Below, piece after piece: positions 2,164-20,851 of a stretch of 32,000 bases of DNA. The DNA is from Sinorhizobium meliloti (GTDB taxonomy: Bacteria > Pseudomonadota > Alphaproteobacteria > Rhizobiales > Rhizobiaceae). Location: the NCBI RefSeq assembly GCF_017876815.1, contig NZ_JAGIOS010000003.1, positions 1,470,001-1,502,000 of the forward strand, written 5' to 3'. Numbering within the stretch: position 1 is the stretch's first letter; each line of letters opens with the position of its first letter. The translations under genes and the position numbers were made by a program. Below the pieces are notes generated by a model. That model made no database searches. It saw nothing but the letters and a program-made list of their open reading frames with translations, and was not told where the DNA came from.

Positions 2164-3011
2164 GCCGCAACTCCCATCCGCTGTATCTGCCCCAGTCCAT
2201 CGCCGAGCAGAGCAAAACCGAGGCCGAGCGAAATGGCGGCCAATCCCGGAAACAGGCAAATCCACCAGGCTTGCTGCACGAAAGCCTGACCGTCGGCGAT
2301 CATCACGCCCCATTCGGCGAGCGGCGGCTGCGCGGCCATACCGAGGAAGCCGAAGCTTGCACCGGCGAGCATGACGAGCACCGCGTCGCTGGCTGCGTAG
2401 GCGATGACCGGTCCGATGGCGTTAGGCAGCACATGATGGCTGAGTATGGTGGCCGGCCGATAGCCGAGGCATTTGGCCGCCTGGATATACTCGCTTTCGC
2501 GGATCGTCAGTACCTGCGCCCGCACCAAACGCGCATAGCTTACCCAGCCGACGAGGGCCAGGGCCAGGATGAAGTTGAGGAGCCCCGGCCCGAGCACGCC
2601 GACAATTGCCAGCACCAGAACAAAGAAGGGGAACGCGACGGTCAGGTCATAGATGCGCATGAACACGGTATCGACCGCACCGCCGAAATAGCCGCTCAAC
2701 AGCCCGATTATCGTCCCGATCAGGAGCGGCGGAAGCACCCCGGCCACACACAGCAGCAGATCGACCCGACTTGCGAAAAGAACCCGCGAAAAGACGTCGC
2801 GACCAACTTGGTCCGTGCCGAACAAATGGGCGGCATTCGGCGGCGAAAGCATATTCATGATGTCAACGGCATTGGGATCATAGGGCGCGATCGCGGAGGC
2901 GGCTAGCGCAATCACCAACCATCCACCAAGAATGACGACTGCAATCAGGATGGTAGGGGTGGTGCTGCCGACTGGTGGCGCGGTTTGCACAAGAATAGGG
3001 CTGTCAGTCAT
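2160..3011 (-). CDS. ABC transporter permease (DppC/OppC-like)
   Basis: 283-aa multi-pass hydrophobic protein with a BPD-type permease core (SYARLVRAQVLTIRESEYIQAAKCLG). GAGGAG SD lies before ATG 3011. It sits in the operon with the other transporter genes. Confidence 0.9.
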   Translation of the reverse strand: MTDSPILVQTAPPVGSTTPTILIAVVILGGWLVIALAASAIAPYDPNAVDIMNMLSPPNAAHLFGTDQVGRDVFSRVLFASRVDLLLCVAGVLPPLLIGTIIGLLSGYFGGAVDTVFMRIYDLTVAFPFFVLVLAIVGVLGPGLLNFILALALVGWVSYARLVRAQVLTIRESEYIQAAKCLGYRPATILSHHVLPNAIGPVIAYAASDAVLVMLAGASFGFLGMAAQPPLAEWGVMIADGQAFVQQAWWICLFPGLAAISLGLGFALLGDGLGQIQRMGVAA

Positions 3012-3022
3012 GGGCTATCTCC

Positions 3023-3961
3023 TCAGAACCGGACGCGCGGATCAATGACGGCGGTGAGCAGATCCACTATCAGCGTGATCAGGACGGTCGAGACCGCGAA
3101 GATCAGCGTCAAGCCCTGCACGACATAGTAGTCGCGCCCGAGCAGCGCGTTGACCATCAGCGTGCCGAGGCCGGGCACCGCATAGACGGTTTCGACGATG
3201 ACGGCGCCGCCGATCATAAAGGCCACCATGACGCCGAGCAGGTTGAGTGTCGGCAGCAGGGCGTTCGGCAACATGGTCTGCCAGAATATCTGCCGCTCTG
3301 TGGCGCCCTGCGCCCGCGCGGCGGTGACGAAGTCGGCGGCCGTTTTTTCGATAAGGGCGGCGCGCAGGCTCTGAGTCAGAACCGGCACCAGCCAGATGGC
3401 CGTTGACAGGGCCGGCAAAAAGAGGTGATGAATATGGCCTGTGAAACCGGTGCCGTAGCCCGAGACCGGGAACCAGCCGAGGCTGACGCCCAAGAAGCGC
3501 GACATCATGATGCCCAGCCAGAATACCGGGATGGTGAGGCCGGCAATCCCCAAAAGGCGAATGATCTGGTCTGCGATGCCGCCGGGACGGCGGGCGCCGA
3601 GGATGGCGAGCACGACCGTCGGCGGGATGGCGAGGCATAGGACATAGCCGGTCAGGAACAGCGTCGGCCACATGAACTGTTCAATAAGCTGGCTCACCGG
3701 TCGCTGAAAGCGCAGCGACAGGCCGATATCGCCCAAAGCGAGATTGGCGAGATAGGTCAGGAACTGCCGCCAGAGCGGCAGGTCGAGCCCATATTGCGAG
3801 CGGATCGCCGCGATGGTTTCAGCATTCGCCCTCTCCCCGGCAAGAAGCCGCGCGGGATCGCCGGGGGCCATGTGCACTAGAAGGAACGTCACGAGGCTGA
3901 TACCGGCAAGCACACCGATCAATTGCAGCAGGCGCCGCGAAATGAGTTGCAGAAGGGGCAA
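3023..3961 (-). CDS. ABC transporter permease (DppB/OppB-like)
   Basis: 312 aa with a typical DppB N-terminus (RRLLQLIGVLAGISLVTFLLVHMAPGDPARLLAG) and C-terminal DPRVRF. TTG start at 3961, preceded by GGAGAG. Confidence 0.9.
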   Translation of the reverse strand: MPLLQLISRRLLQLIGVLAGISLVTFLLVHMAPGDPARLLAGERANAETIAAIRSQYGLDLPLWRQFLTYLANLALGDIGLSLRFQRPVSQLIEQFMWPTLFLTGYVLCLAIPPTVVLAILGARRPGGIADQIIRLLGIAGLTIPVFWLGIMMSRFLGVSLGWFPVSGYGTGFTGHIHHLFLPALSTAIWLVPVLTQSLRAALIEKTAADFVTAARAQGATERQIFWQTMLPNALLPTLNLLGVMVAFMIGGAVIVETVYAVPGLGTLMVNALLGRDYYVVQGLTLIFAVSTVLITLIVDLLTAVIDPRVRF

Positions 3962-4000: not shown

Positions 4001-5548
4001 TCACGGAACGATGGAGGTTTCCTCCAGCGTCCACTGTAGCGAGGGCGTCAGCTTTAGACCCTGGAGACGTTTCGAATAGGCAACCGCGTTTGGTGCATAA
4101 TAGAGGGGGATCTGCGCCACCTCCTCGGTGGTGATCTTCTGAATCTCCTTGTAGATTTCCGCGCGCTTGGCCTGATCGGCCTCTTTGGTCCCCTGCTCCA
4201 CGAGCGCGTCAACCTTCGCGTTCGCATAGAACGTGTTGTAGGAGTTCGAGCCGCAGGATCCGCACACGGCCCAGCGGACGGCAAGGTCAGGATCGAGGGT
4301 TTCGTTGTACCACCAGTTGGCAGCAGCGTCGTAATCGCCCTTGCCGGTGGCATCCCACCAGGCGGCGCCATCGACGTTGACGATCACAGGCTTCAACCCA
4401 ATCGCCTGCCATTGGGCCTGGATCAGCAGTGCCGTCTGCTGCGCCGGCGCATCGGCGGTCGCCAGGATCTTTACCTCGCGCCCCGCCATGCCGGATTCGG
4501 CCAGTAATTCCTTTGCCTTGGCGGGTTCGTGCGGAATACCCGGGTAATCCTTGTCATGGAAATCGACGCTGCCCGGCAACGTGGTGTTCGCCGGTTCGGC
4601 ATAGCCACGCGTGATGGCTGCGGCTATGGCTTTGTTGTCAATCGCCATGCCGGCCGCCTGCCGCGCCTTCAGATTGGAGAAGGGCTCGCGCTTGTGGTTG
4701 AGCAGGGTCATGTAGATCGTGGTCGAAGGCTCGAGCCGCATATCCACCAACTCGGTCGCCTTTAGCTCGCCGATCTGCGCCCACGGCACCGCGCGCACCA
4801 CGTCGACCTCGCCGGCCTTCAGCATGGCGATGCGGGTTTCGGGCGATGTGATCTCGATCAGCTCGACCGTGGCGTCCGAATTAGGATAGCCCTTGCGCCA
4901 GTAGTGCGGATTGGGTTGGAGAACAAGCTTCTCGTTCGGCTTCCACTGCTTGACTTCATAGGGGCCGGACGTAACCGGGACCGTGGCGAAAGCCGCCTCC
5001 TCGCCGCGCTTCTCGACATCGGCCTTCGAGACGATCCCCATGTTCCAGATTTCCGCGTTGCCGAGGAACGGCGCGAAGGCCGACTTGAGCGTGATCAACA
5101 CGGTTTTCGCATCCGCCGCGGTCACGGATTCCACGGCCCCCAGCGGCGCAGGATAAGCCGATTTCTTGTCGCTCCGGATACGGTCGAGGCTGAAGGCCAC
5201 GTCGGCAGCCGTGATCGGCGAACCGTCCGAGAACTGGGCATCGCGCAGATGAAAGGTGTAGCTCTTGCCCTCCGGCGAAATTTCCCATTTCTCGGCGAGC
5301 CCCGGCTCGAGCGCGCCGGTTTCAGAGTTCCGGCGCAGCAGACGCGAATAAAGCTGGCCGTAGGTTTCTATATTGCCGGCCGCCGCGGAGCGCATCGGAT
5401 CGAGCGTCGTAGTCTGGTAAGGCGAAACGACGCGGATTACATCGTCGGCGAAGGCCGGAACGGCCCAACACAAACCCATTGCGACGAGGGTGCTGCCGTG
5501 CAGCACCGCACCCGCAGCCCGCGTGCGGGATCCGCTCAAGAAAATCAT
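4001..5548 (-). CDS. ABC transporter substrate-binding protein, family 5 (peptide/nickel/opine type)
   Basis: 515 aa with a signal peptide (GSTLVAMGLCWAVPAFADD) and family-5 SBP-like sequence throughout. GGGAGGAG SD lies before ATG 5548. Confidence 0.9.
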   Translation of the reverse strand: MIFLSGSRTRAAGAVLHGSTLVAMGLCWAVPAFADDVIRVVSPYQTTTLDPMRSAAAGNIETYGQLYSRLLRRNSETGALEPGLAEKWEISPEGKSYTFHLRDAQFSDGSPITAADVAFSLDRIRSDKKSAYPAPLGAVESVTAADAKTVLITLKSAFAPFLGNAEIWNMGIVSKADVEKRGEEAAFATVPVTSGPYEVKQWKPNEKLVLQPNPHYWRKGYPNSDATVELIEITSPETRIAMLKAGEVDVVRAVPWAQIGELKATELVDMRLEPSTTIYMTLLNHKREPFSNLKARQAAGMAIDNKAIAAAITRGYAEPANTTLPGSVDFHDKDYPGIPHEPAKAKELLAESGMAGREVKILATADAPAQQTALLIQAQWQAIGLKPVIVNVDGAAWWDATGKGDYDAAANWWYNETLDPDLAVRWAVCGSCGSNSYNTFYANAKVDALVEQGTKEADQAKRAEIYKEIQKITTEEVAQIPLYYAPNAVAYSKRLQGLKLTPSLQWTLEETSIVP

Positions 5549-5623: not shown

Positions 5624-5700
5624 CATTCAAGTTGTAAATATAACACGAAGCCGACTCTTGGCCTCGCAAGCCCCGGCACCTCGGCCAGCGATGGCGGCGC

Positions 5701-6975
5701 AACGGTCGAAAGACGCCGGCCGACGATTGTTCAAAGGCCCCCCCACTCGAGCAGCACCTGAATCGAAAACTTTGTGCTGATCGGGGAGTTCGAACGCACT
5801 CCAAACGCGGGGAGGCTCAGGTTAACGTCGCTATTCGCTGGTTTATCGGCTTCGGTCTGCACGAAGCTCTCCCGGACCATTCGTCGTTGACCCGTATCCG
5901 TCAGCGCTGGGGTGCAGAGCGTTTCCGAACTATCTTTGAGCGGACGGTAAAGGTCTGCGTAGCGGCCAAAGTCGCCAAGGGTGAGGTCGTTCATGTCGAC
6001 GCCTCACTCATTCGGGCCGACGTCAGTTGGGAAAGTCTTGCGGTCCGCCACATAGATGCGGTCACCGACGCCAACGAGGCTACTGAAAGCGAACGAAAAA
6101 GCCGCAAAACAGGCAAATACAAGAAAGTCTGCGTCACCGACCCTGACGCGTCCATGGCGACCAACGGGCGTAATCGGAGACTGGAGCCAGCCTACAAGCA
6201 ACATGCCGTGGTGGACGATGCTTGCGGCGTAATTTTAGATGTGGAGGTCACCACAGGCGAGACTAATGAGGGGCAATTCATACTCAGTCGTCTCGACGCG
6301 GTCGCCGCGATGACCGGCACGACAATCAAAACGGCAACGGCCGACGCCGGCTATGCGTACGCTAAGGTGTTCGCAGGTATGGAGCAACGCGCGATCGAAG
6401 CAGTTATTCCGGCAAAGGCAGAGCCAATCCGTAGCCCCGTGCCTATGCGCCGCTTTCGTTATGACGCCAAGCACGATACCCTTAAATGTCCGCGCGGCAA
6501 AATGCTGAAGGCGGGCCGTGCCGTTAAACATGGGCGCTTCTTTACATCTCGCGCGGCCGACTGTCGGCACTGCGATCTGGCGCGACTTTGCCTTTCCAAT
6601 GGCCGTGTGAACAAGGCGGTAGTGCTCGGCGATGACTATCCGGCACTCCTGCGAGCTCGTCGCCGAAGAGAACGATGGTCGGACGAGGACCGAGCTTTGT
6701 ACCGACGTCACCGCTGGCGCTCAGAGGGATATCACGGCGAAGCGAAGACCTGGCACGGGCTATCGAGAGCGATCCGGCGCGGCCTCATAAATATGAAAAT
6801 CCAAGCCTATCTGACGGCCGCGGCAGTCAACTTGAAACGACTGGCGAGTGCTTTTCTGTCAATTTTGCTGTTCGTGTACAGCCAAGAAGCCACCAGTTCA
6901 GCCCGACATTCCCTCAGGCAAGGAAAAGTTTTTGGAATCGGCTTGTTGGTGGCTTCCGCATAGCTCCGCCGACGA
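5701..6975 (+). mobile_element. IS5/IS1182-superfamily insertion sequence remnant; DDE transposase ORF 5887-6963 with a degraded N-terminus
   Basis: ORF ends ...RHRWRSEGYHGEAKTWHGLSRAIRRGLINMKIQAYLTAAAVNLKRLA, a typical IS5/IS1182 C-terminus. In-frame upstream sequence (no ATG) reads ...EAQVNVAIRWFIGFGLHEALPDHSSLTRIRQRWG, the InsH-type N-terminal domain, so the 5' part is truncated or mutated. Confidence 0.75.
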
Positions 6976-6993
6976 TTGGTTCTTCAACAGCCC

Positions 6994-7333
6994 CACGTAA
7001 CAGCGCTGCCAGGCAGCTTCCGGGATCACCTCGCCAATTGCCGCGACGAGACCGGCATGGTCGTCGGAGACCACCAGTTCGACGCCCTTCAAACCGCGCC
7101 CTTTCAACCTGACGAGGAAGTCCTTCCAGTCGGAACGGCTTTCACGGCCGGCCATCTCGACCGACAGGATCTGCCGCCGCCCGTCCCAGTCGATGCCGAC
7201 AGCGATCAGCACCGCCTGGCTCATCACCACACCGGCCTCGCGCACCTTCTCATAACGGGCATCGAGAATCAGGTAGGCAAACGGCTCTTGAAGCGGGCGC
7301 TCGGCAAAGGCCTTCAGGCTCTCGTCCAGCCGC
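6994..7333 (-). pseudogene. IS256-family (mutator-type) transposase internal fragment
   Basis: Minus-strand translation: RLDESLKAFAERPLQEPFAYLILDARYEKVREAGVVMSQAVLIAVGIDWDGRRQILSVEMAGRESRSDWKDFLVRLKGRGLKGVELVVSDDHAGLVAAIGEVIPEAAWQRCYV. There is a stop just upstream, and homology is lost where the IS5-like element abuts. Confidence 0.8.
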
Positions 7334-7640
7334 TAGCCGCATCACCAGCCTGCCATGACCGCCTCTCTCAGTGAATTTGCAGAACCTTCAACACACTACC
7401 CTGATACACTGCAATGCCTTGTTAGGAGAGCGGCAGCCATCCCATCTTGTTCGCACCCCAAATGTGAGGCGCAATTGGCGGCGCTGGAGCGCGGGTTGGT
7501 CAGCTCACGATGTAGCTGGACCTGGATAAAAAAACCGCGCCGATCGCCAGTTGCAACGAGAAACTATCCGTGGTCACCGGCCCACAGCCTGCCCCGTTAC
7601 ACGAGTGTCAAAATGATCGATCTACAAGATCGTCAACTGC

Positions 7641-8651
7641 TCACCGCACCTTCCTTGAAGGTTGGCGCAAGGCCGCCGAAATCCCGTCGTTGAAGCGGAT
7701 GGTGCGCACCTCCTCCTGGAAATCGGCGCAGGATTGCCGCCAGCGCGAGCCCGGCCAGACCAGTTCCACCGAGGCATCGAGCGGTCGGTAGACGGCGGTG
7801 TATAGCGTGCCGCAGTCACGTCCGTAGTGTGTCTGGTAGACGGGGGGGCGCTGGAAGCCGGAAAGAACGTTCTTGATACTCGCCGAGGCGGGCAGCAGTT
7901 TCTCCACCGCGGCCTCGCGCTCGACCGACTTGGTGGTCTCGGCGTGGCACGCCCATTCTACGCCGTGCTGGTGGTTGGTGCTGACGCGACGCTCCACCAC
8001 TTCCGCCGGGCGATCCGGATTTACATAGACGGTCGCATGGTTTCCCTGACGGTCGATCAGCGCGATGGAATAGGACATGTGCACGGGAATATCCCGGAGC
8101 ATGGCAACGGCTGCGGCCGTGGTGTTAGCAAACTCCAGCACGTAGCGCAGCACAACCGGCATGCCGAATCCCTGCCCCTCGGCGGTGCGCCCGCCGAAAG
8201 CGAGCGAGACGGCCAGCCCGTCCTCGTTGATGCCGTCGAGCACGCCCCACAGGCAATCGACCACCGCGACGACGCGCTTGCCGTTGAAGCGCGACGCGAG
8301 CCAGGTGCCTTCGAGAAGGCGCGGGCTGTAGTCATAGTTGCGAATGAGCGACGACTCCGCACCGGTCAGGATCGCTTGCGAACAGCCTCTCACATAGAAG
8401 GGCGGGCACCACATGGACAGGAAGCGGGCTTCCAGATCGCCGCCGCCGGCCGTCTCCACGATGGCCTCGTAGGTCGGCAGCAGTTTCGGCATATGTGTCC
8501 GCAATGCTTCGAGGCTCATGGAATAGGTCGGGCGCGATCGGACACCTTCGCGCACGAACCAGCGGCTGTAGGCAGGCCAATGGCGATAGAACACCCGGCG
8601 CCATTTGGAACCGGGCACATCTTCGTTTATAGCTTCGAACTGGAGGTCCAT
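7641..8651 (-). CDS. C45-family Ntn hydrolase / acyltransferase (acyl-CoA:6-APA acyltransferase-like)
   Basis: The internal RGCSQ suggests an autoproteolytic Gly-Cys nucleophile. LIRNYDYSP and GINEDGLAVSLAFGG blocks are typical of C45/C59 Ntn hydrolases. I prefer ATG 8651 (AGGA 7 nt upstream); the track start at 8699 is a GTG alternative. Confidence 0.7.
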   Translation of the reverse strand: MDLQFEAINEDVPGSKWRRVFYRHWPAYSRWFVREGVRSRPTYSMSLEALRTHMPKLLPTYEAIVETAGGGDLEARFLSMWCPPFYVRGCSQAILTGAESSLIRNYDYSPRLLEGTWLASRFNGKRVVAVVDCLWGVLDGINEDGLAVSLAFGGRTAEGQGFGMPVVLRYVLEFANTTAAAVAMLRDIPVHMSYSIALIDRQGNHATVYVNPDRPAEVVERRVSTNHQHGVEWACHAETTKSVEREAAVEKLLPASASIKNVLSGFQRPPVYQTHYGRDCGTLYTAVYRPLDASVELVWPGSRWRQSCADFQEEVRTIRFNDGISAALRQPSRKVR

Positions 8652-8668
8652 GGCGTCCTGCAGAATCT

Positions 8669-10108
8669 TCAACGGATCGGCTCCTTCGCTTCGTCGCACT
8701 GGATTTCGGTGACCGCCTTGCTGGCATAGAGGCGCTTGATGCCCGTGATCCAGTTGCAGGCCCGCTCGGTCAGCTCGAATTCGTCGTCCATCACCCGCCC
8801 CCGCATCATCAGGGCTCCAAGGTCGGCGCCCTTCTTTAGGGAGTCGCCGCGGCCGGTGAAGCGCACGAAGAGAGCCTCCTCATCGCTCTCGATCGCCTGC
8901 CGGTGATAGTCGAAGCGGTCGTAGGACACGCTGCCGTCCGGCGCCATGCGGTAGATGCCCGCCGCCGGCGCATGGGTGACGATTCCGTCGAGGTCCTCGG
9001 TCGACTTGAGAATCAACTGCGACCAGGAATCGATGAATTCCTCGCTTGCCCAACGATCGTTCAGTTCCTTTACGTCGATGTTGTACTCGATCCCGGAAAA
9101 TTCCATTAGGTGAAATAGGAAGAGTGGCGCATCGGCATAGGCAAAGGCGGCCTGGTTCATCAGCGAGCTTGCGCCGGATATGCGCGGATTGAGCTCGCCG
9201 AGATAGCCTTCGTTGTTCTCATCAATGAGGAAATCGAGGTTGAAATAGCCGCGATAGCCTTCCTTGCGCAACTGGTTGCCAAAGCGGAAGGCCATGTCGC
9301 GCGTCTTGGCGCGGACATTTTCGGAAAAGGCGCCGGCGAAGATTTCATTGCCAGCCCAGCCGCCCTTGTAGGGCGTCAGCTCCGGCTTGCCGACGACTTC
9401 GGTCATAAGTGGGCCGACGAGCGTGCCGGAGGCCGTGGTGCAGGCCTCCATGGTCGCGCTGCGGCAGTTGACGCGCTTCATGATCTTGACCTCCTCCTCG
9501 GCGGAAATCTCCGCGGCGTGACGGTTGTAGTCATCCTCGCTGGCGATCAAGAAGGTCGTGCGGCCGCTGTCGCCGAAGCCGGTCTGCACCACAAGATCGG
9601 TGCCGAGGCCACCCCTTCTCGCCGAACAAAGAAGTTCCTCATAGGTGCGGGCGGGGCCCAGCGTGTTGGGGACGGAGGGCACGCCCGCTTTGTTGCCGAT
9701 GCGCACGGTCTCCATCTTGTTGTCGCAGCGCTGACGCAACTTGGCCTTAGGATGCCAGACCTCGATGCCGAGTTCCTTGCAAAGTTCTTCGGTCGTCTCG
9801 TCGAACATCAGGAAGACGGCGGCCGGGCGGCCGCCGCGCCTAGCGATATGGTCGATCACTTCCTTGCGCTGGAGCAGGTGGTTGTTGATGCCCTCAATGC
9901 TCTTGCATCGGGTATGGGGGATTTTGGAGGGAGCGAAGACGTTCGGATGCCGCCCGTCGAAGGGGTCGATGTAGTTGATGAACTTGAAGTTCCCCACCCA
10001 TTCGTCGATCCCCATCAGATTGAAATTCGTCCCGGAGACGAAATAGATCGGGCGCTTGTTGCGGTGCATGACGAGGCGAATGTCGGCAATATTTCTGATG
10101 CGTTTCAT
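8669..10108 (-). CDS. ATP-grasp fold carboxylate-amine/peptide ligase (479 aa)
   Basis: Has an N-terminal pre-ATP-grasp-like region and a central ATP-grasp core (GLGTDLVVQTGFGDSGRTTF...YRGYFNLDFLIDENNEGYLGELNPRISG). The start at ATG 10108 is preceded by AAGGAGGG. The track ORF to 10198 is an extension. Confidence 0.75.
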   Translation of the reverse strand: MKRIRNIADIRLVMHRNKRPIYFVSGTNFNLMGIDEWVGNFKFINYIDPFDGRHPNVFAPSKIPHTRCKSIEGINNHLLQRKEVIDHIARRGGRPAAVFLMFDETTEELCKELGIEVWHPKAKLRQRCDNKMETVRIGNKAGVPSVPNTLGPARTYEELLCSARRGGLGTDLVVQTGFGDSGRTTFLIASEDDYNRHAAEISAEEEVKIMKRVNCRSATMEACTTASGTLVGPLMTEVVGKPELTPYKGGWAGNEIFAGAFSENVRAKTRDMAFRFGNQLRKEGYRGYFNLDFLIDENNEGYLGELNPRISGASSLMNQAAFAYADAPLFLFHLMEFSGIEYNIDVKELNDRWASEEFIDSWSQLILKSTEDLDGIVTHAPAAGIYRMAPDGSVSYDRFDYHRQAIESDEEALFVRFTGRGDSLKKGADLGALMMRGRVMDDEFELTERACNWITGIKRLYASKAVTEIQCDEAKEPIR

Positions 10109-10413
10109 GATTGGCCCTCCTTCTCTTCGAGTGTTGCGCATGATCGCGCTTCCTGTCTTCTTCTCTTCTTCGACATACCCTGCCCCTGATGTGCACACTT
10201 CCGGAGATTTTCACTGCCGTTTGGGCATAGGGAGATGGGGCCAAGACTGTCGAGATAGGCGGATGCGCCGCCTTTCTCGTAGGTCGAGGAGGCGACGTTG
10301 CGGTCGCAGAAGGACTTCAGCACCTGGCGCACCCGGAAATGGGGAGGAAGCATGGATCGACTCGCTAGCGCAAATCGGTACGCGCAGATGTGATTTGGTG
10401 CGTGAAAACCCAT
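10105..10413 (-). CDS. small hypothetical protein (102 aa, or 82 aa from ATG 10353), translationally coupled to the ATP-grasp gene
   Basis: It fills the 322-nt gap between the decarboxylase stop and the ATP-grasp start. Third-codon-position GC is very high across FRVRQVLKSFCDRNVASSTYEKGGASAYLDSLGPISLCPNG. Its TGA overlaps the ATP-grasp ATG (ATGA). I recognise no family. Confidence 0.5.
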   Translation of the reverse strand: MGFHAPNHICAYRFALASRSMLPPHFRVRQVLKSFCDRNVASSTYEKGGASAYLDSLGPISLCPNGSENLRKCAHQGQGMSKKRRRQEARSCATLEEKEGQS

Positions 10414-10430
10414 TGTTTGAGGGAGCACAC

Positions 10431-13211
10431 TCAAGACGCGCCTCCATGCCCGGGAGACGGCTTTTGTGCGTCCAGAACTCTGGTAAGCGCTTTCTCCGTG
10501 AAAACCCGAAAACCCTGTTCCGGCCGGAAGCCGTGTATTTCGCGAACATCGAGCGCGCGCAGATATTGCAGTATCGCGGGACTTATGACCTGGCCCGGCA
10601 CGAGAATGGGCGAGCCCGGTGGGTAAGGGGTAACGAGACGCGCAGAGACCAGTTCGCGGCCCCGTGCGATGGCGCCTTCGGCTTCGATGAGGTTGAGATA
10701 CTCGCACTTTGCATTGTCATAGGACAGGTAATAGGCCGAGCGTATGTCGCCATCTCGGCTTCCCATGTTAGTAAAAGAGTCCGTCGCGCGGAACGCCGAA
10801 TGGAAGGCTGAAAAGGTTGGCAGCGGCGGCTGTTTCTGCGTCAGCGAGAGAAACTGTTGATCGTGGATGCTGCGCTCGATCATGGAGAGATCGCGCACTT
10901 TATCGTCGATGTCGCGCGCGATCTTCACCAGCACCCCGATGAGATGGGCTAGGTCGGAGCGTGTGCAGCCGATATTCACTATGAACAACACCGTGTTGGG
11001 CGAGGTCTTGTTGATCTGGATCTTGTGTTCATCCATCAGCTTGTTCTTGAATGGGTCGCCACTGAGGCCTGTCGCGCCGATTTCCAGCGTTACGCGTGTC
11101 GGATCGAGCGCGAATTCGTCCGTCCGCCAGGCCGCCTCAAAATTGCTCCAGCCGGTCTTCTCGTCGAAACAGGATTCCGCGTTCGACTGGCGATATTTCG
11201 GCGGCACGAGATCGTCGCCGCCGAGGACTCGGAAATACTTCGTCAGCAGCGGATGGCGGAACATCTGCTCGCGCAGGCTCATGGCGAGTTCCAGCGTGCG
11301 CTGCACGAGTTTATAGCCTTCCATTTCCACCTGCCGGCGGCCGACGTCGAGCGACGCAAGGATCTGGTAGTTTGGTGAGGTCGAGGTGTGCGTCATATAG
11401 GCCTCGTGGAAGGCCTCCTCGGTCTTTTCCTTGAACTCCTGATCCCAGATGTGAATCATTGACCCCTGCCGCAGTGCCGTCAGCGTCTTGTGCGTCGACT
11501 GGGTTGCATAGACCCGCACCCGCGCCTTCGACGGATCTGGAAGGAGTTGCGTGTTCAGGATCCTTTCGTCGTCCTTCCAGGCCCCGGCGTCGAATTCGGC
11601 GCTGAAGGCCTCGTAGCGGGTGGCGTAGTCAGGAGCCTGCAGCATCGCGGTAAGATTGGCGGCAGCTTTCATAGCCGTGCGCTGCCGGAGTATCGGATGC
11701 GCGTAAGCGAAGGCGAACCAGGCCTCGTCCCACACGAAGACGAGATGCGGCGCGATCGCCAGGCACTCCATCATCACGCGCTCTACGTTATAGACGATGC
11801 CATCGAAGGTGCAGTTGGTGAGCAGCAGCAGACGAACACGGTCGAGCGTGCCGGCGTGCTTGTAGGCGAGAAGGGTCCGCTTCAGGTCCCGCAAGGGCAC
11901 TCCGCCATATATGGAATAATCGTTCCGCGGATAGGGATCCAGATAGTCGACCCGCGCCCCCGCCAGCACCAGCCCGTAATGGTGTGATTTGTGGCAGTTG
12001 CGGTCGGCCAGCACCACGTCGCCTGGCCTGACAAGCGCCTGCAACACGACCTTGTTGGCGGTCGAAGTCCCGTTGGTGACAAAGAAGCTGCGCTTGGCGC
12101 CAAAGGCGCGCGCGGCATATACCTGCGCAAGCTTCAATGGGCCGGTCGGATCGAGCAGGGAATCCAGGCCGCCTGAGGTAGCGGAGGTCTCCGCCATGAA
12201 CAGGTTGATGCCATAGAACCGCGCAAGATCGTCGATCCAACTCGAATTCACGATCGACTTGCCGCGGGAGACCGGCAAGGCATGGAAGACGCTTACCGGC
12301 TGTTTGGCGTGGTTGCGCACGGCATCGAAGAAGGGCGTCTGGTAGCGCAGCGCGACGCCGCGTGTGATGGAGTAATATAGTTCGTCTTGGTGCTCATCGC
12401 GGAAGAAGACGCGCCGGAACGTTTCGCCCATGCGCGCAGCGATGTCCTCGACATTGCCGTCAGTGACGAGATAGAGGTCGAGCTCTGGCCGAAGCTGCGC
12501 AATCTGGCGGCCGAGCAGCGGGCCGCGCTCGGATTCCGGAACGGCATCGATGCCGGCGACTAGCCCGTCGAGGACCCGACGCCACGTGGCCAGATGATGG
12601 TCCTGCGAGCGGGAGGGAAAACCGTAACGGACAACCACGGCCTGGAGGTCGAAGTTGACGAGCGTCGCGATCAGAGCGTCCTCGAAGGTCGGCACGATGA
12701 CTATGTCAAAGACGAAGTCGTCATCGATGCAGCGTTTGCGCTGTACGCGCCGGCGTAGAGCCTCCTGCTCGGAGCCCGACATCTGGCCAACTATCAGCAC
12801 CTCGAAATAGTGGCGAGCCTGCCGCTGTTCGTCAGTTTCGATCTGGGAGGGCAGGTCGCCTTCGGTCTCCGATAACACGCTTTGGCGGCGATAGGTCTGC
12901 CTGGCGAGCATCTTGTGAATCCGCCGCGCGGCGAGATGGGCCTGGACCAGTTCCCGTCGTTCGACCAACCCTTTCAGTTCGGCGAAGGAACGTGCACCGG
13001 GAAAAGCCCAGTAGGTCTCTATGGGGGACAGAGTCTTGATAGCGTGGGTCACCCGCTCAAGGGTTGTAATGAAATCGGAATGGTCCGGGGAAATAGTCGA
13101 GAGCAGCCCCAGATCGTCCACCAATAATGTCCAACTGTCAGAGCGAAGCTCCGCGATGCTGCGGCAGCTATGTAGCGATATTTCGACGGTATCCGTGGTG
13201 GCGATAGTCAT
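10431..13211 (-). CDS. large Orn/Lys/Arg decarboxylase-family PLP enzyme (926 aa)
   Basis: Fold-type-I major domain with PLP lysine motif ATQSTHKTL, plus TSATSGGLDSLLDP and VTNGTSTANK blocks. A wing-like N-terminal domain is preceded by an extra segment of about 140 aa. The start at ATG 13211 forms ATGA with the nifH-derived leader ORF. The track ORF to 13442 reads through the promoter cassette and is not credible. Confidence 0.85.
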   Translation of the reverse strand: MTIATTDTVEISLHSCRSIAELRSDSWTLLVDDLGLLSTISPDHSDFITTLERVTHAIKTLSPIETYWAFPGARSFAELKGLVERRELVQAHLAARRIHKMLARQTYRRQSVLSETEGDLPSQIETDEQRQARHYFEVLIVGQMSGSEQEALRRRVQRKRCIDDDFVFDIVIVPTFEDALIATLVNFDLQAVVVRYGFPSRSQDHHLATWRRVLDGLVAGIDAVPESERGPLLGRQIAQLRPELDLYLVTDGNVEDIAARMGETFRRVFFRDEHQDELYYSITRGVALRYQTPFFDAVRNHAKQPVSVFHALPVSRGKSIVNSSWIDDLARFYGINLFMAETSATSGGLDSLLDPTGPLKLAQVYAARAFGAKRSFFVTNGTSTANKVVLQALVRPGDVVLADRNCHKSHHYGLVLAGARVDYLDPYPRNDYSIYGGVPLRDLKRTLLAYKHAGTLDRVRLLLLTNCTFDGIVYNVERVMMECLAIAPHLVFVWDEAWFAFAYAHPILRQRTAMKAAANLTAMLQAPDYATRYEAFSAEFDAGAWKDDERILNTQLLPDPSKARVRVYATQSTHKTLTALRQGSMIHIWDQEFKEKTEEAFHEAYMTHTSTSPNYQILASLDVGRRQVEMEGYKLVQRTLELAMSLREQMFRHPLLTKYFRVLGGDDLVPPKYRQSNAESCFDEKTGWSNFEAAWRTDEFALDPTRVTLEIGATGLSGDPFKNKLMDEHKIQINKTSPNTVLFIVNIGCTRSDLAHLIGVLVKIARDIDDKVRDLSMIERSIHDQQFLSLTQKQPPLPTFSAFHSAFRATDSFTNMGSRDGDIRSAYYLSYDNAKCEYLNLIEAEGAIARGRELVSARLVTPYPPGSPILVPGQVISPAILQYLRALDVREIHGFRPEQGFRVFTEKALTRVLDAQKPSPGHGGAS

Positions 13212-13354
13212 GGTCTTCCAAGCTCCCGTCGGTGGCTGAGTGCGAGATGATGCCGCGACATCGGACGCGGCTGGTTCCCTCGAAGCAATGGACACGGCAC
13301 CCGCTTGGGCTTGTGTTTCTTGCAGTGGAACGCGATCTGACGCAGAGCTGCCAT
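13208..13354 (-). CDS. nifH-derived leader ORF (48 aa): 9 nifH codons followed by unrelated sequence
   Basis: AAGGAAG SD, then ATG 13354: MAALRQIAFHCKKHKPKRVPCPLLRGNQPRPMSRHHLALSHRRELGRP*. The stop TGA (13210-13208) overlaps the decarboxylase ATG (13211-13209). Confidence 0.5.
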   Translation of the reverse strand: MAALRQIAFHCKKHKPKRVPCPLLRGNQPRPMSRHHLALSHRRELGRP

Positions 13355-13403
13355 CTTGCTTCCTTTGTTGTTTAATTATTTGGGTTGTTCGGAGGGTTGA
13401 TCG

Positions 13404-13419
13404 TGCAAAAGTCATGCCA
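13404..13419 (-). promoter_or_regulatory. sigma54 (RpoN) -24/-12 promoter, copy A
   Basis: Minus strand TGGCATGACTTTTGCA, matching TGGCAC-N5-TTGCA with correct GG/GC spacing. Confidence 0.75.
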
Positions 13420-13507
13420 GGCCGCAGGAGTGACTGAAGCAATGCTAATTGCTTTCTTTCAGATGGTTAGATCGGGAAATTGACGACACGGTCGAAGGAA
13501 CAATCGG

Positions 13508-13523
13508 TGTCGCAAAGCCGACA
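13508..13523 (-). promoter_or_regulatory. NifA upstream activator sequence, copy A
   Basis: TGTCGCAAAGCCGACA fits TGT-N10-ACA and lies about 90 nt upstream of the -24/-12 element. Confidence 0.7.
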
Positions 13524-13607
13524 AAGGTGACGAACAATGTCGTATGGGTGGTCGTCACGCGTCCGAGCATGTGGAGGCGTGGGCGCTCTTCCGAAACTTT
13601 GTTTAGC

Positions 13608-14109: not shown

Positions 14110-14246
14110 GTAGACTTGCCGATACCCCCTTACCGTAGAACGCGATCTGACGCAGAGCTGCCATCTTGCTTCCTTTGTTGTTTAAACTAATTCGTTTGTT
14201 CGGGACAATTGAATGCGCACAGCATGCGCGCGCCACTGGGTGATCT

Positions 14247-14262
14247 TGCAAAAGTCGTGCCA
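14247..14262 (-). promoter_or_regulatory. sigma54 -24/-12 promoter, copy B
   Basis: Minus strand TGGCACGACTTTTGCA. Confidence 0.75.
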
Positions 14263-14348
14263 GGCCGCAGGAGTTACTAGAGTAATGCTAATGGCTTTCT
14301 TTCACATGGTTAGATCGGGAAGTTGGCCGCATGGTTGAAGGAAATCTG

Positions 14349-14364
14349 TGTCGGGGAGCCGACA
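14349..14364 (-). promoter_or_regulatory. NifA UAS, copy B
   Basis: TGTCGGGGAGCCGACA fits TGT-N10-ACA. Confidence 0.7.
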
Positions 14365-14936
14365 AGGGCGGCGGACAATGTCGTATGCTGTGCAGTCATC
14401 CGTTTCGACACCGGGGCTTCTTCGCCTACAGGATCGAGGTGATGGGGCGGAGAAATGCCGCGACATGAGTCAGGCGCAAATGCTGGAGGCTTTTTCGTCC
14501 GGGACGGTCGGGGTCTTTGCGTCCTACAGTGCAGCGCTCGGCCAGATTGAAAGCAGGTGGCGGGCAAATTTGCACTCAAGGCAGCGCCTTGGCCGATCAT
14601 GTCTAAAGGTGGACGTGTTCCGGCAGGCGGTCGCGTGATCATGATTTATTCGAAGGATCCAAGCAAACAGAAGGCCGAAAACGCAAAACCTGCTCGCCAC
14701 ATCCTACGAGCTGAATCCAAATCAGCGAGCCGCGCTCGACTCCGTTACGCCTGACGAAATGGCTTTCGTATCCCGGTGACAATGGATCAATCAAGGTCAG
14801 CGAGGTCATTCGTGATCAGCTTCGGCGCATTCTTATCGGCCATGAGGAGCCGGCAGCTGTTCTGGCCAACAAAAGGCTGCCGTGCAGCCGCACGTTGCCG
14901 CAAACCAACCCCTCGTCCAAATAAAATCGGAACATA

Positions 14937-15301: not shown

Positions 15302-15770
15302 TCACATGGCGTGGAGGATGACGGCGAGCTTTCGGGCTACCGCCACCTTAGCCTTTCGATAGCCGCCTCGCCGCGCGATGCGCAGCCTCCAGCTCTTTAA
15401 AGCGGAGAACCGTGGAATACGAGTCAGCAGCGAATTGGCTGCCTCATACAGGCTGCCTCGAAGAAAGTCGGCGCCCCGTTTCGAGACGCGCCCGGATCTC
15501 ATCGTCTCACCGGAGGCATAGATGCGAGGTGTCAGGCCAAGGTAAGCTCCGGTGCTGGACGATCGTTTGAATCGTGTCGGATCATCAATGGTCGCGGTGA
15601 AGCCGAGCGCAGTGATGGCGCAGACACCAGGGACCGACATTAGGCGTCTTACGACAGCGTTCTGCCGCGCTATCGAGCGAACCTTCGCATCGAGGAGACC
15701 CACTCGGAAGCGGGAGCTGGTGAGGGGCATGTGCCGAGATTGGATGATCTCGATCCGCGTAGTTGCGGTC
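15302..15770 (-). pseudogene. IS110-family transposase, C-terminal half only
   Basis: RRLMSVPGVCAITALGFTATIDDPTRFKRSSSTGAYLGLTPRIYASGETMRSGRVSKRGADFLRGSLYEAANSLL...KAKVAVARKLAVILHAM is the Transposase_20 domain. The N-terminal DEDD domain is absent. Confidence 0.8.
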
Positions 15771-16319: not shown

Positions 16320-17306
16320 TCAGCCGTATACGCCGATTATTTCTATTTCACGCATCTCGGCCGGCGTGACGAGCGGCTCGGCCAGGAATTTCTCGGCTTC
16401 CAGCGCCGCCATGCTTCCCATGCCGGCGGCGCTGATCGCCCGACGGAAGACCGGGTCGATTACATCACCGGCCGCGAGTATCCCCGGAACGGATGTCTTC
16501 GTCGACCAGGAGCCAACCTTGATGTAGCCGGCCCGGTCCATGTCCAACTGACCGCGAAACAAGGCGGTTGCTGGATCATGACCTATGAAGAGGCCGTGCG
16601 TGGGCAGTTCCTTCGCGTCGCCGGTATTCACGTCACGAATTCGAACGCCGGTCACCGACTTCCGCGGCTCGCGCTCGCCGATAACTTCATCGATGACGTG
16701 GTTCCAAATGACGTCAACATTCGGTCTGGCCAAAAGGCGGTCCTGCAAGATCGGCTCCGCTCGAAAACGATTTCGGCGATGGACGACTGTGACCTTGGAG
16801 GCAAGGTTCGACAGATAGAGCGCTTCCTCCACGGCTGTGTTCCCGCCGCCGACAACGACCACTTCCTTGTTTCGATAGAAAAAGCCATCAGAGGTTGCGC
16901 AGGCGGAGACGCCGAATCCAGCAAATATCTTCTCTGAGGGAAGGCCAAGCCATCGGGGCTGGGCTCCCGTCGCGATGATGAGTGCGTCGGCGAGATACGT
17001 GTCGCCGGAGTGAGCTTGGAGACGGAATGGCCGCTTCCAGAGATCGACAGAGGTGATGATGTCGTACATCAACTTGGTGCCGACATTTTCTGCCTGCTGC
17101 CGCATCTGCTCCATCAGCAAGGGACCTTTGACCGGCTCAGCGAAACCTGGGAAGTTCTCGACATAAGCCATGGTGGTGAGCTGGCCGCCGGCCTGCCGGC
17201 CGGTTACGAGGAGTGGCTTCAGGTTGGCAAGGGCAGCGCAGATGGCAGCGGTATAGCCCGCCGGTCCGGCCCCGATGATCAGGACCCTGGCGTGGTGGGT
17301 GTTCAT
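16320..17306 (-). CDS. thioredoxin-reductase-like flavoprotein with CxxS (CATS) in place of the CATC redox centre
   Basis: 328 aa from ATG 17306 (AGGAGGAG SD). Motifs: FAD site GAGPAGYTAA, NADPH sites GGGNTAVEEALYL and VHRRNRFRA, and AAGDV. The active-site region reads VSACATSDGFFY, with a TCT codon where TrxB has TGT/TGC. The track ORF to 17540 is an extension. Confidence 0.85.
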   Translation of the reverse strand: MNTHHARVLIIGAGPAGYTAAICAALANLKPLLVTGRQAGGQLTTMAYVENFPGFAEPVKGPLLMEQMRQQAENVGTKLMYDIITSVDLWKRPFRLQAHSGDTYLADALIIATGAQPRWLGLPSEKIFAGFGVSACATSDGFFYRNKEVVVVGGGNTAVEEALYLSNLASKVTVVHRRNRFRAEPILQDRLLARPNVDVIWNHVIDEVIGEREPRKSVTGVRIRDVNTGDAKELPTHGLFIGHDPATALFRGQLDMDRAGYIKVGSWSTKTSVPGILAAGDVIDPVFRRAISAAGMGSMAALEAEKFLAEPLVTPAEMREIEIIGVYG

Positions 17307-17632
17307 GATGTGATCTCCTCCTACGTAACGGTCCGGTGGGTCGGCCGTGACGCGGCCTCGGGGTAGTTGGTGTAGCAAAGGCAGCTCCTTGCGCATTGTG
17401 AAGCACTCAGCAGATCGAAAGGGCTTGGGGCTTGGGGTTTGGGTTCTGCGTTGGGGCTGAGACAGCGGTTCTGAACCAATCTGGTGAGAGCAATCGTGTC
17501 GGCCGGGTTTCGCTGTGTGGTGACACAATGATGCTGCCAAGGGTGATATCGGACAGTGCCGCTGGTCAGCTTTGGAAATTGCAGTCTAATGCCGCATTGG
17601 CGCGCCCGCTTAGGCGCAACTTCAGTGGGACA

Positions 17633-18403
17633 TCAGCACTGGCGCCCGAAGGGCGTACCGAGACGGCCTTGGGCCTCCCGATCGACGAGCAGCGTCACCG
17701 TGCGATCGGGACTGCGGAACAACCTCGCACGACTGATGTTGAGGACGGTCTCAGAGGTGGTCGCTATTTGAACGGGACGGTGAGCGGCCTCGATGACCTC
17801 GACATCCAAGATCGAGTGGTCGCACAAGACAATGGGAGACCAGGCGGGAGGGCACCCGATGGCCTTGCCTGTGACGGCCATGAGCGAAGATCCGAGCGGG
17901 AGGAGCGGCCCCCCGAGCGTACGATTATAGCCGGTGCTGCCGATTGGCGTCGTCAACACGAGACCATCCCCGTTGATGTTCATCGGGTCCCCATTTCCGC
18001 GGACGGCAACGCTTAACTTGGCTTGCTGGAATACCTGCCGCTCAAGGACGATCTCGTTGATAGCGAAAAGCTCTCGGCTGCGCCCTCCCACCTGCTCGAT
18101 CTCGGCTTGCAGCACAGGCAGTTCCTCGCTGGAAGCCGCTTGCAATCGCTCCGTCAAATCATGCGTCCGTAGTGAATTGCAGAGAATTCCGGTGGAGCTG
18201 TCGGTACGCATGGCGAATACGGGCTTTGCCGGCATTGCCGGCATTGCCAGTGCCTCATGAAGCGCCTCCAATGCGGTACCGTCTCCACCGATGGCCACGA
18301 TGAATTCGGCTTCTGCCGCCGGGGTCTGGCCGTAGCGCCCCGAAAGTTCCTTGAGTGCCCCCTGAGCGCGTGGTCTCGGTGATGCCCGGAATGCGATCTT
18401 CAT
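17633..18403 (-). CDS. nadK: NAD(+) kinase
   Basis: Motifs GGDGT (IVAIGGDGTAL), NEIVLER and GDGLVLTTPIGSTGYN. 256 aa. Confidence 0.85.
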   Translation of the reverse strand: MKIAFRASPRPRAQGALKELSGRYGQTPAAEAEFIVAIGGDGTALEALHEALAMPAMPAKPVFAMRTDSSTGILCNSLRTHDLTERLQAASSEELPVLQAEIEQVGGRSRELFAINEIVLERQVFQQAKLSVAVRGNGDPMNINGDGLVLTTPIGSTGYNRTLGGPLLPLGSSLMAVTGKAIGCPPAWSPIVLCDHSILDVEVIEAAHRPVQIATTSETVLNISRARLFRSPDRTVTLLVDREAQGRLGTPFGRQC

Positions 18404-18600
18404 GGTTGAGCCTTTAATTCAAGAAGGCTGACTTCCCCATTCAAAGGGGGGTTGAGCAAAGCTGGCTGGGCGCTAAGATCTCGCAACAAGCCGCGCTTAG
18501 ACGCGACCATCCGTTGCCGCTGCTTCCCAATACGGATGAAAATATCAGCGCGAACTAAACACGCTTTTTTCAGCCACCTGATCATGCCGTTCTCACTCAT
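18400..18600 (-). CDS. small hypothetical protein (66 aa), translationally coupled to nadK
   Basis: ATG 18600 is preceded by GAGGGAGG. Its TGA overlaps the nadK ATG (ATGA at 18400-18403). GC3 is only moderate and I recognise no family. Confidence 0.4.
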   Translation of the reverse strand: MSENGMIRWLKKACLVRADIFIRIGKQRQRMVASKRGLLRDLSAQPALLNPPLNGEVSLLELKAQP

Positions 18601-18660
18601 GATTGCCTCCCTCTTTGTGGCCGTTGTAGGCGGCCACGCCATCAGCACCGTTTCGGGGCC

Positions 18661-20664: not shown

Positions 20665-20747
20665 CTTGCTTCCTTTGTTGTTTAAACTATTTCGGTTGTT
20701 CGGACACATGAATGCGCAACAGCATACGCGCCCAGCAGGGCTGATCG

Positions 20748-20763
20748 TGCAAAAGTCGTGCCA
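20748..20763 (-). promoter_or_regulatory. sigma54 -24/-12 promoter, copy C
   Basis: Minus strand TGGCACGACTTTTGCA. Confidence 0.75.
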
Positions 20764-20851
20764 GGACGAAGGACTGGCTGGAACGAAGCTAGTTGCTTTC
20801 TCTCAGACAGTTAGATCGGGAAATTGACGACACGGTTGAAGGAACAACCTG

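Follow-up and report, generated by a model that had tools for sequence, protein, structure and literature searches.

A long form of the pyridoxal phosphate (PLP)-dependent decarboxylase superfamily, with an additional N-terminal domain, was founded by the Mycobacterium tuberculosis protein Rv2531c and has been characterised only in 2025-2026, in a cryo-electron microscopy paper (2025) and a PNAS paper (2026) (PMC13506015, PMC12329521). Rv2531c converts L-glutamate to gamma-aminobutyrate (GABA), needs Mg2+, has no activity on lysine, ornithine or arginine, and sustains the GABA shunt, and its sequence-similarity cluster takes in Rhizobium species (PMC13506015, PMC12329521). Here we analyse a gene for an enzyme of this kind, and the genes that accompany it, in a 32,000-nucleotide stretch of DNA from Sinorhizobium meliloti (contig NZ_JAGIOS010000003.1 of assembly GCF_017876815.1, forward-strand positions 1,470,001 to 1,502,000; this whole stretch is called the window, and coordinates are counted from its first letter). 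A second described system that invites comparison is the rhizopine mos/moc locus of S. meliloti L5-30, an accessory locus of the symbiosis plasmid in which the synthesis genes lie behind a nifH-type promoter and a linked module for uptake and catabolism is found also in strains without the synthesis genes; the mos locus also begins with an open reading frame (ORF) derived from nifH. Symbiotic regulation of rhizopine synthesis is cited in a passage of PMC3538637.

Window positions 7400-13600 match NC_017327.1 262568-268768, on plasmid pSmeSM11c of S. meliloti SM11, with 100% identity. The locus holds three intact genes on the minus strand, all read in the same direction: a long-form (four-domain) PLP decarboxylase of the Rv2531c type (926 amino acids, 10431-13211; Pfam OKR_DC_1, 5e-79), an ATP-grasp enzyme probably of the PRK06524 "biotin-carboxylase-like" family (479 amino acids, 8669-10108; NCBIfam, 679 bits), and a C45 autoproteolytic amidase/acyltransferase of the cysteine N-terminal nucleophile (Cys-Ntn) class (336 amino acids, 7641-8651; C45_proenzyme and Pfam AAT matches, and an Ntn fold match). 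The decarboxylase and ATP-grasp genes are separated by 322 nucleotides and the ATP-grasp and C45 genes by 17. All three proteins are as long as their homologues, and the reading frames proposed for them in a first-pass annotation of the window (13211-10431, 10108-8669 and 8651-7641) are real and full length. The locus is accessory: in the collection examined its only S. meliloti carriers are the SM11 and RU11/001 plasmids, and it is further carried by a set of R. leguminosarum and R. beringeri symbiosis plasmids. The best overall explanation of this locus, to which we give a little less than an even chance, is that it directs the synthesis of a GABA-containing amide in bacteroids, linked to re-uptake and hydrolysis of that amide.

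The first part of this explanation comes from the decarboxylase itself. Its best solved relative is Rv2531c (PDB 9N0N/9N0O; 792 bits, E 6e-237, 46% identity), and the alignment pairs residues 21-916 with residues 24-908 of the 9N0N chain, with the extra N-terminal domain included, at only 23% identity within that domain. The first-pass annotation had remarked on an unusual N-terminal extension of about 140 amino acids; the extension is real, and it is no oddity, being the defining extra domain of the Rv2531c-type long forms. In a PDB sequence search the lysine, ornithine and arginine decarboxylases of known structure score at most 203 bits, against the 792 of Rv2531c, and the NCBIfam models for basic-amino-acid decarboxylases all fail, with scores far below their cut-offs (LdcC, 234 against 968; a further model, 198 against 1056; AdiA, 178 against 1167; SpeF, 159 against 1310). 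An arginine of Rv2531c, R576, has been proposed to bind the gamma-carboxylate of glutamate (PMC13506015, PMC12329521). In the window enzyme H407, K408, the PLP lysine K575, R581 and N734 are conserved, and a threonine is aligned with T606 of Rv2531c; across 39 proteobacterial homologues the positions of Rv2531c H405, the PLP lysine, R576 and N731 are invariant, and K406 is kept in 36. The likeness to the Rv2531c structures (PDB 9N0N/9N0O/9N0P) thus extends over the four domains, the extra N-terminal domain among them, the full-length alignment, the H-K motif, the PLP lysine, R576, T606 and N731. The gene differs from rv2531c in its setting, standing here behind a nif promoter and followed by ATP-grasp and C45 genes, neighbours that rv2531c is not known to have.

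The full-length likeness to Rv2531c, the conserved recognition residues and the glutamate- and GABA-type genomic partners described below all point to glutamate as the substrate, and the decarboxylase probably makes GABA from L-glutamate, and no diamine. The earlier assignment of a basic amino acid (lysine, ornithine or arginine) as substrate is probably wrong for an enzyme that is closest to one inactive on these amino acids, that keeps the recognition residues, and whose partners elsewhere are gabT, gabD, a GabR-type regulator, hut genes and Glu/Asp-type transporters. The remainder of that enzyme assignment stands, as profile searches place the three proteins in the PLP decarboxylase, ATP-grasp and C45 Ntn classes.

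The partners were surveyed in 80 genome loci around homologues of the ATP-grasp gene. A C45 gene lies immediately downstream of the ATP-grasp gene in essentially every locus that is long enough, and the trio of decarboxylase, ATP-grasp and C45 genes is kept in about 40 of the 80 surveyed genomes, so the doubt first attached to the trio, that it might not be conserved as a neighbourhood elsewhere, falls away. Three contexts can be distinguished. In the first (about 40 loci, in genera including Variovorax, Cupriavidus, Accumulibacter, Acinetobacter, Burkholderia, Delftia and Bradyrhizobium), the long-form decarboxylase gene is directly upstream, and the usual order is carbon-nitrogen (CN) hydrolase, decarboxylase, ATP-grasp, C45. 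One genome of this kind has the order gabT, gabD, CN-hydrolase, decarboxylase, ATP-grasp, C45, SDF symporter and family-3 solute-binding protein (SBP3), divergent from the gene of a GabR/MocR-type regulator, with gabT and gabD both passing curated thresholds; in Cupriavidus and bacterium YEK0313 transport genes of DctA/GltP-like and Glu/Asp-like types come after the core; and in Bradyrhizobium it is divergent from hut genes, whose pathway ends in glutamate. In the second context (about 25 loci, among them Shinella, Labrys and Aestuariivirga) there is no decarboxylase, and the ATP-grasp and C45 genes lie inside an arginine-to-GABA cluster that contains a permease, a universal stress protein, a ureohydrolase, a 5-guanidino-2-oxopentanoate decarboxylase (737 bits against a threshold of 500) and an aldehyde dehydrogenase, then the ATP-grasp and C45 genes, a D-amino-acid dehydrogenase, an Orr-like racemase and RidA. 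In the third, CN-hydrolase, ATP-grasp and C45 genes stand alone (Aquitalea, some Acinetobacter, Polaromonas).

Of 83 loci, 56 have a CN-hydrolase gene within 10 kb, and the hydrolases of the different contexts are orthologues (the Cupriavidus and Shinella proteins are 52% identical). What is truly conserved as a unit is therefore CN-hydrolase, ATP-grasp and C45, joined to two routes that both end in GABA. The attachment of the ATP-grasp/C45 pair to two different GABA-forming routes argues that the pair acts on GABA or on a derivative of it. The trio had been taken to be symbiosis-specific; it is in fact widespread in free-living alpha-, beta- and gamma-proteobacteria, and only the promoter and the downstream module described below are specific to rhizobia.

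Two of the surveyed loci have features of their own. The arginine-to-GABA cluster of Shinella zoogloeoides, which contains the ATP-grasp/C45 pair, also encodes a protein of 595 amino acids annotated as "alanine racemase" (locus L003, 6900-8687), in which a domain resembling ornithine racemase (393 bits, cut-off 480) is fused to a C-terminal arginase-like domain. In Aquitalea palustris (locus L037, 2401-8628) kdpB, kdpD and kdpE lie directly upstream of the CN-hydrolase, ATP-grasp and C45 genes, a possible hint of an osmotic-stress link of the core module.

The ATP-grasp protein belongs to a large family, with more than 5500 relatives that are 64-80% identical across alpha-, beta- and gamma-proteobacteria. 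It scores 678.9 bits against PRK06524 (NF005096; cut-off 684), covering profile positions 14-482 of 493, and no characterised member of the PRK06524 family was found. The best PDB matches of its structural model (mean pLDDT 78) are PurK, biotin carboxylases and the L-amino-acid ligase BacD, at TM scores of 0.55-0.60 and 12-18% identity. A true biotin carboxylase was considered and rejected, since the accC score is 24.6 against a cut-off of 626.5 and the surveyed neighbourhoods contain no gene for a biotin carboxyl carrier protein or carboxyltransferase; by reading of the ELNPRISGASS motif, an invariant alanine stands at the position of the biotin carboxylase general base E296. The C45 protein scores above the cut-offs of its profiles (C45_proenzyme, 170.5 against a cut-off of 85; PF03417, 100.8 against 23.2), and its G89-C90 processing site, R104, D107, N226 and R245 are invariant among 31 C45 homologues. 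The best structural match of its model (mean pLDDT 87) is isopenicillin-N acyltransferase, and further fold matches are NAAA, acid ceramidase, bile-salt hydrolases and penicillin V acylases, all of which cleave or transfer amide bonds of N-acyl amines. With isopenicillin-N acyltransferase (C45; PDB 2X1C/2X1D; TM 0.70) the protein shares a predicted Gly-Cys autoprocessing site and the Cys-Ntn catalytic residues; it differs in being bacterial, in its ATP-grasp partner and in the lack of any beta-lactam context, and the two are only about 14% identical.

For the ATP-grasp and C45 proteins, sequence searches of the PDB gave weak biotin-carboxylase matches only, or none, and fold searches gave superfamily placement with no close characterised relative, so that the substrates of the two enzymes cannot be read from structure. 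Both look active, on the evidence of the alignments and models, the one forming an amide bond with ATP and the other breaking or transferring one. The worry that these genes might be degenerate paralogues is not borne out by the alignments of the decarboxylase and the C45 protein, in which the catalytic residues are intact, and the logic put forward in the first-pass annotation, in which an amine is made, ligated and then trimmed or transferred, is still the best reading. The same logic is found in the glutathionylspermidine synthetase/amidase and gamma-glutamyl (Puu-type) pathways, which likewise combine an ATP-dependent amide ligase with a cysteine amidase and an amine obtained by decarboxylation. 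Those systems use other protein families, however, and the amine here is probably GABA rather than a polyamine; we claim no membership in them. Whether the ATP-grasp and C45 enzymes act on a GABA-derived amide, as their genomic context suggests, we regard as an evenly balanced question.

The symbiosis-plasmid copies of the operon differ from those of free-living bacteria by the loss of the CN-hydrolase gene, as judged by comparison of the sequences. Traces of the lost gene lie in the fourth gene of the originally proposed four-gene operon, a small ORF between the decarboxylase and ATP-grasp genes (10413-10105, minus strand). The only conserved stretch within it (10222-10326, minus strand) is the remnant of a CN-hydrolase gene, corresponding to the final 35 codons at the 3' end; it is 71% identical to residues 267-301 of the 304-residue Shinella CN-hydrolase (BLASTP E 4e-14, tblastn E 9e-10). 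Three genes of the proposed operon are thus upheld and the fourth is not. The small ORF has no family match among Pfam and NCBIfam profiles; its frame is broken in R. leguminosarum Vaf10 by indels of 9, 14, 8 and 4 nucleotides relative to SM11; and about 170 nucleotides of the region are missing in R. beringeri SM51 and Rhizobium sp. WYCCWR10014. Together with the relic, these findings rule out a real gene or a carrier protein at this position. Since the CN-hydrolase gene adjoins the ATP-grasp gene elsewhere, the spacer holds the stump of a deleted CN-hydrolase gene.

Expression in bacteroids is suggested by the DNA upstream of the decarboxylase gene. The consensus for sigma-54 promoters is TGGCACG-N4-TTGCW, and an A at -12 is a known peculiarity of R. 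leguminosarum nifH promoters, according to passages of PMC3538637. A scan of the window with the consensus TGGCAYG-N4-TTGCW, taken from PMC3538637, gave four -24/-12 matches (three exact and one with a single mismatch), against 0.65 expected by chance. One of these, TGGCATGACTTTTGCA (13404-13419, minus strand), is an exact match to TGGCACG-N4-TTGCW and belongs to nifH cassette A, which also has a NifA upstream activator sequence (UAS), TGTCGGCTTTGCGACA (TGT-N10-ACA; 13508-13523, minus strand), the nifH ribosome-binding region and the first nine nifH codons. Its matches in other S. meliloti pSymA records overlap nifH as annotated there. Cassette A leads into a nifH-derived leader ORF of 48 amino acids (MAALRQIAF plus 39 more; 13208-13354, minus strand), whose TGA overlaps the ATG of the decarboxylase gene (ATGA), an arrangement that suggests translational coupling. 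The three features that define this promoter family (the consensus, the UAS, and homology to a genuine nifH promoter) are all present in cassette A, and the earlier proposal of a nifH promoter upstream of the operon is well founded.

Relatives of the operon in other species have promoter elements of the same type. In R. leguminosarum Vaf10 the operon has its own species-type copy of the nifH promoter, TTGGCACGAATCTTGAGAGC, identical to the one that precedes nifH 1 kb away, and the decarboxylase, truncated at its N terminus, continues in frame from the nifH ATG. In R. beringeri a UAS and CTGGCACGACGCTTGA (TGGCACGACGCTTGA), an element with the A at -12 mentioned above for R. leguminosarum, stand ahead of a full-length decarboxylase. 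One operon is thus found with three promoter configurations (SM11, Vaf10 and R. beringeri), and the presence of three different promoter solutions before the same operon argues for selection for bacteroid expression. We consider nif-type regulation of the operon very probable, as predicted from these promoter sequences. Terminator and sigma-70 scans gave nothing above chance.

Further promoter copies were noted near the operon. A second cassette, B (14129-14387, minus strand; identified by the promoter scan and by cassette homology), has its -24/-12 element at 14262-14247 and leads only into a degenerate, frameshifted nifH fragment; it lies 843 bp upstream of cassette A and reads towards it, and the two form tandem nif promoters. 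In Vaf10 (locus L001, 15500-15620) about eight tandem units of 12 nucleotides, CGCTACCTTTGT, lie upstream of the duplicated nifH promoter, each unit repeating half of the NifA UAS region.

The second part of the explanation comes from the genes that follow. The operon had been taken to end at 7641, and this missed a syntenic importer and hydrolase module of seven genes that lies directly downstream on the same strand and is syntenic in Vaf10, R. beringeri and others. It begins with the family-5 solute-binding protein of an ATP-binding cassette (ABC) importer (4001-5548, minus strand), whose closest solved relative is AapF (PDB 7KZ8, E 1e-84); PDB 7KZ9 is AapF bound to the small amide HEHEAA. 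Two ABC permeases (3961-3023 and 3011-2160) and a double ATPase (about 2163-499) follow on the minus strand (499-3961 in all), identified by family matches and by synteny with Vaf10, to whose proteins they are 95-96% identical. The next gene, of which the start is present in the window before its edge cuts it (1-509, minus strand), encodes an amidase-signature enzyme, and the genes of an RpiR regulator and of a NylB-like serine hydrolase lie just outside the window, after the amidase. Over its full length the amidase matches NylA, the 6-aminohexanoate-cyclic-dimer hydrolase (PDB 3A2P; 261 bits, E 3e-76; next best 6e-45), and the serine hydrolase matches NylB, the 6-aminohexanoate-dimer hydrolase (PDB 2ZM0; 212 bits, E 9e-62, full length, best by a wide margin). 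NylA and NylB are the best solved relatives of the two hydrolases, which occur together here as they do in nylon-oligomer degraders; the difference is that here they are encoded on symbiosis plasmids, beside an ABC importer and a regulator of the RpiR type. By analogy, we infer that the natural substrate of the NylA- and NylB-like enzymes may be an omega-amino-acid amide based on GABA.

The module adjoins the trio on all 16 of the rhizobial plasmid records that have a full-length ATP-grasp gene. Rhizobium sp. CIAT894, Rhizobium sp. 32-5/1 and Neorhizobium galegae have the module but not the trio, and in Shinella it is on a different plasmid from the ATP-grasp/C45 cluster. Such stand-alone occurrence is what a separable catabolic trait would look like, and a functional link between operon and module is suggested by this gene context. 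On plasmid pRheCIAT894b of Rhizobium sp. CIAT894 (locus L092, 18293-20191) a gene for a methyl-accepting chemotaxis protein lies directly upstream of the binding-protein gene, and a succinate-semialdehyde dehydrogenase gene lies about 7 kb from the trio-less module.

Taken together, these elements can be modelled as follows. NifA and sigma-54, acting at the duplicated nifH promoter, would switch the operon on in nitrogen-fixing bacteroids, and the long-form PLP decarboxylase would then convert L-glutamate to GABA and CO2. The ATP-grasp enzyme would, at the expense of ATP, form an amide between GABA (or a near derivative) and a second compound, and the C45 Cys-Ntn enzyme would transfer, cyclise or trim this amide by way of an acyl-enzyme intermediate. 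In free-living bacteria the ATP-grasp/C45 pair would work with the CN-hydrolase in glutamate or arginine metabolism through GABA; with the CN-hydrolase gone in the symbiosis-plasmid copies, the product would not be turned over internally. The bacteroid product would be an amide that contains GABA, such as an oligomer of GABA or an aminoacyl- or acyl-GABA, and cells with the AapF-like importer and the NylA- and NylB-like hydrolases would take the amide up and return it to GABA. As far as GABA the scheme has reasonably good support; the later steps are drawn from genomic context. This full scheme of synthesis plus recapture we hold to be rather doubtful. Still less likely is the further proposal that a GABA-based amide (such as a linear or cyclic GABA dimer or oligomer), made from fixed nitrogen via glutamate and GABA, is used by some strains of S. 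meliloti and R. leguminosarum as a nutrient or signal reserved to them, and so constitutes a second, chemically unrelated system of the rhizopine type. In its accessory position on a symbiosis plasmid, its nifH-type promoter and its adjoining, putative uptake and catabolism module, which occurs also without the synthesis genes, the locus resembles mos/moc. It differs from mos/moc in its enzymes and chemistry, the proposed product being an amino-acid-derived amide as against an inositol derivative, and in that the link to the module is here positional. The locus may belong to a known type, that of symbiotically regulated accessory loci with linked catabolism, and the chemistry of the module that it contains may be entirely new.

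Several observations weigh against this explanation. The identity to Rv2531c is only 46%, and R718 of Rv2531c is a lysine in the window enzyme and in all 39 proteobacterial homologues. The K0.5 of Rv2531c for glutamate is very high, about 0.5 M (PMC13506015, PMC12329521), so even for Rv2531c a better substrate than free glutamate may exist, and another substrate may be preferred. The extra N-terminal domain is missing from the decarboxylases of Vaf10 (locus L001, 15377-12945) and of a lentil strain of R. leguminosarum (NZ_CP071402.1). The ATP-grasp enzyme has no close characterised relative in PDB sequence or fold searches. In free-living bacteria the trio occurs with importers and with gabT/gabD, and there it looks catabolic, not biosynthetic. 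In SM11 the module is parted from the C45 gene by a 1.9-kb block of insertion-sequence (IS) debris (5646-7524, no strand assigned; Pfam matches to DDE_Tnp_1 and to Mutator-family transposase fragments; homology to Vaf10 ends at 5645 and restarts at 7525). Between SM11 and Vaf10 the module is 95% identical and the trio 88%, a difference that suggests different histories, so that the link could be mere co-transfer. Finally, the presence of the locus in only two S. meliloti plasmids means that it is dispensable for symbiosis. In the truncated decarboxylases the match starts at query residue 120-138, the point at which the promoter copy and nifH ATG of Vaf10 are fused in frame, and these enzymes are a natural test of the need for the extra domain.

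Among the alternatives the one that survives best, which we judge somewhat unlikely, is that the operon is an internal GABA-shunt or stress module. A glutamate decarboxylase in the bacteroid would feed the shunt, bypass 2-oxoglutarate dehydrogenase at low oxygen and consume protons in the acidic symbiosome, and the ATP-grasp and C45 enzymes would have a housekeeping role inside the cell, for instance in repair or with a compatible solute, acting on an amide derived from GABA or glutamate; nothing would be secreted, and the importer and hydrolases would be unrelated. The role of Rv2531c in the shunt fits this model, as do the gabT/gabD and GabR-type partners of the trio, the universal stress protein and amino-acid permease in Shinella and Labrys, the adjacent kdpDE in Aquitalea, and the occurrence of the importer and hydrolase module alone elsewhere. 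It is also consistent with the strong induction of rhizobial gabDT in pea bacteroids (PMC6421345). The rhizobial locus itself contains neither gabT nor gabD, however, and the model leaves unexplained both the importer and hydrolase module directly downstream in every rhizobial symbiosis-plasmid copy and the loss of the CN-hydrolase specifically in those copies.

Catabolism by the whole cluster is decidedly unlikely. An imported plant or soil amide or peptide would here be converted to glutamate by the NylA- and NylB-like and C45 enzymes and then to GABA, with the ATP-grasp enzyme activating an intermediate and the nif promoter timing use to the bacteroid stage. All the genes are co-directional, the gap between the C45 and binding-protein genes is only 229 nucleotides in Vaf10, and terminator-like sites are no more frequent than chance; importers flank the trio in free-living bacteria, and in Polaromonas a Dpp-type ABC importer lies directly upstream of the CN-hydrolase, ATP-grasp and C45 genes. 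Yet ATP-grasp ligases are rarely catabolic, the trio is present in many genomes without this importer, and the importer module, which includes an RpiR regulator of its own, is also found by itself. The arginine-to-GABA context, moreover, puts the ATP-grasp and C45 enzymes after the formation of GABA and not before it.

The model of the first-pass annotation, in which a lysine, ornithine or arginine decarboxylase makes a diamine that the ATP-grasp enzyme conjugates and the C45 enzyme trims, by chemistry like that of glutathionylspermidine or polyamine conjugates, is very improbable, for although the Pfam match (OKR_DC_1), the best named NCBIfam matches (LdcC, CadA, AdiA and SpeF) and the RefSeq annotation of a homologue as ornithine decarboxylase all favour it, it must contend with the failed cut-offs, the far closer likeness to an enzyme inactive on these amino acids, the invariant arginine proposed to bind the gamma-carboxylate, and partners that are glutamate and GABA genes, not polyamine genes. 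Two further ideas were set aside: an acid-resistance cassette of the CadA/AdiA type, as there is no gene for a cognate antiporter in the rhizobial locus, and butirosin-type (BtrJ/BtrK) chemistry on GABA tethered to an acyl carrier protein, as no carrier-protein gene is present.

Nodules are rich in GABA, which has been credited to the plant, since rhizobia are not known to have a glutamate decarboxylase of their own. With an Rv2531c-type enzyme encoded on symbiosis plasmids and placed under nif control, the bacteria themselves would be a source of nodule GABA, and the chemistry of the widespread ATP-grasp/C45/CN-hydrolase module would fill a gap in GABA metabolism well beyond the rhizobia. If the importer and the NylA- and NylB-like hydrolases act on the product of the operon, the locus would be a new nutritional-mediator system, which would matter for competition between strains and for the engineering of plant-microbe signalling; enzymes known only from the degradation of nylon by-products would also gain a natural substrate. 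A GABA-amide used as a private nutrient would, if real, give a natural role both to the CN-hydrolase/ATP-grasp/C45 module and to the "nylon-oligomer" hydrolase families. Full-text literature searches found no description of the gene set, of the ATP-grasp/C45/CN-hydrolase unit or of a Nyl-like module in rhizobia, in keeping with the earlier statement that no characterised pathway has this gene set. Searches on the annotation of the SM11 plasmids likewise yielded nothing specific, and none turned up a transcriptome of SM11 or of the Rhizobium strains with the locus.

The nifH cassettes are not confined to the neighbourhood of this operon, as pSmeSM11c contains ten copies, four of them in the window. 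The third of these (20629-20894, minus strand) has a UAS, the element TGGCACGACTTTTGCA at 20763-20748, and about 17 nifH codons fused to an unrelated ORF. It heads a second accessory operon (16320-19923, minus strand), in which the gene at 19923-18661 resembles glutamate dehydrogenase (435 bits, cut-off 750), that at 18403-17633 resembles NAD kinase, and that at 17540-16320 encodes a thioredoxin reductase passing TIGR01292; a nif-driven glutamate dehydrogenase could, as predicted from these sequences, supply glutamate to the decarboxylase. The fourth copy, D (22157-22365), has a degenerate element, CGGCACGACGTTTGCA, and lies inside a FixK/Crp-like ORF (22783-22085). Mobile-element debris is dense in three parts of the window (5646-7524, 15302-15730 and 25080-28821), where it includes IS5/IS1182-type and Mutator-family transposase fragments, an IS110-family fragment and a Tn3-family transposase with resolvase, as would be expected if this part of the symbiosis plasmid were a mosaic of accessory DNA.

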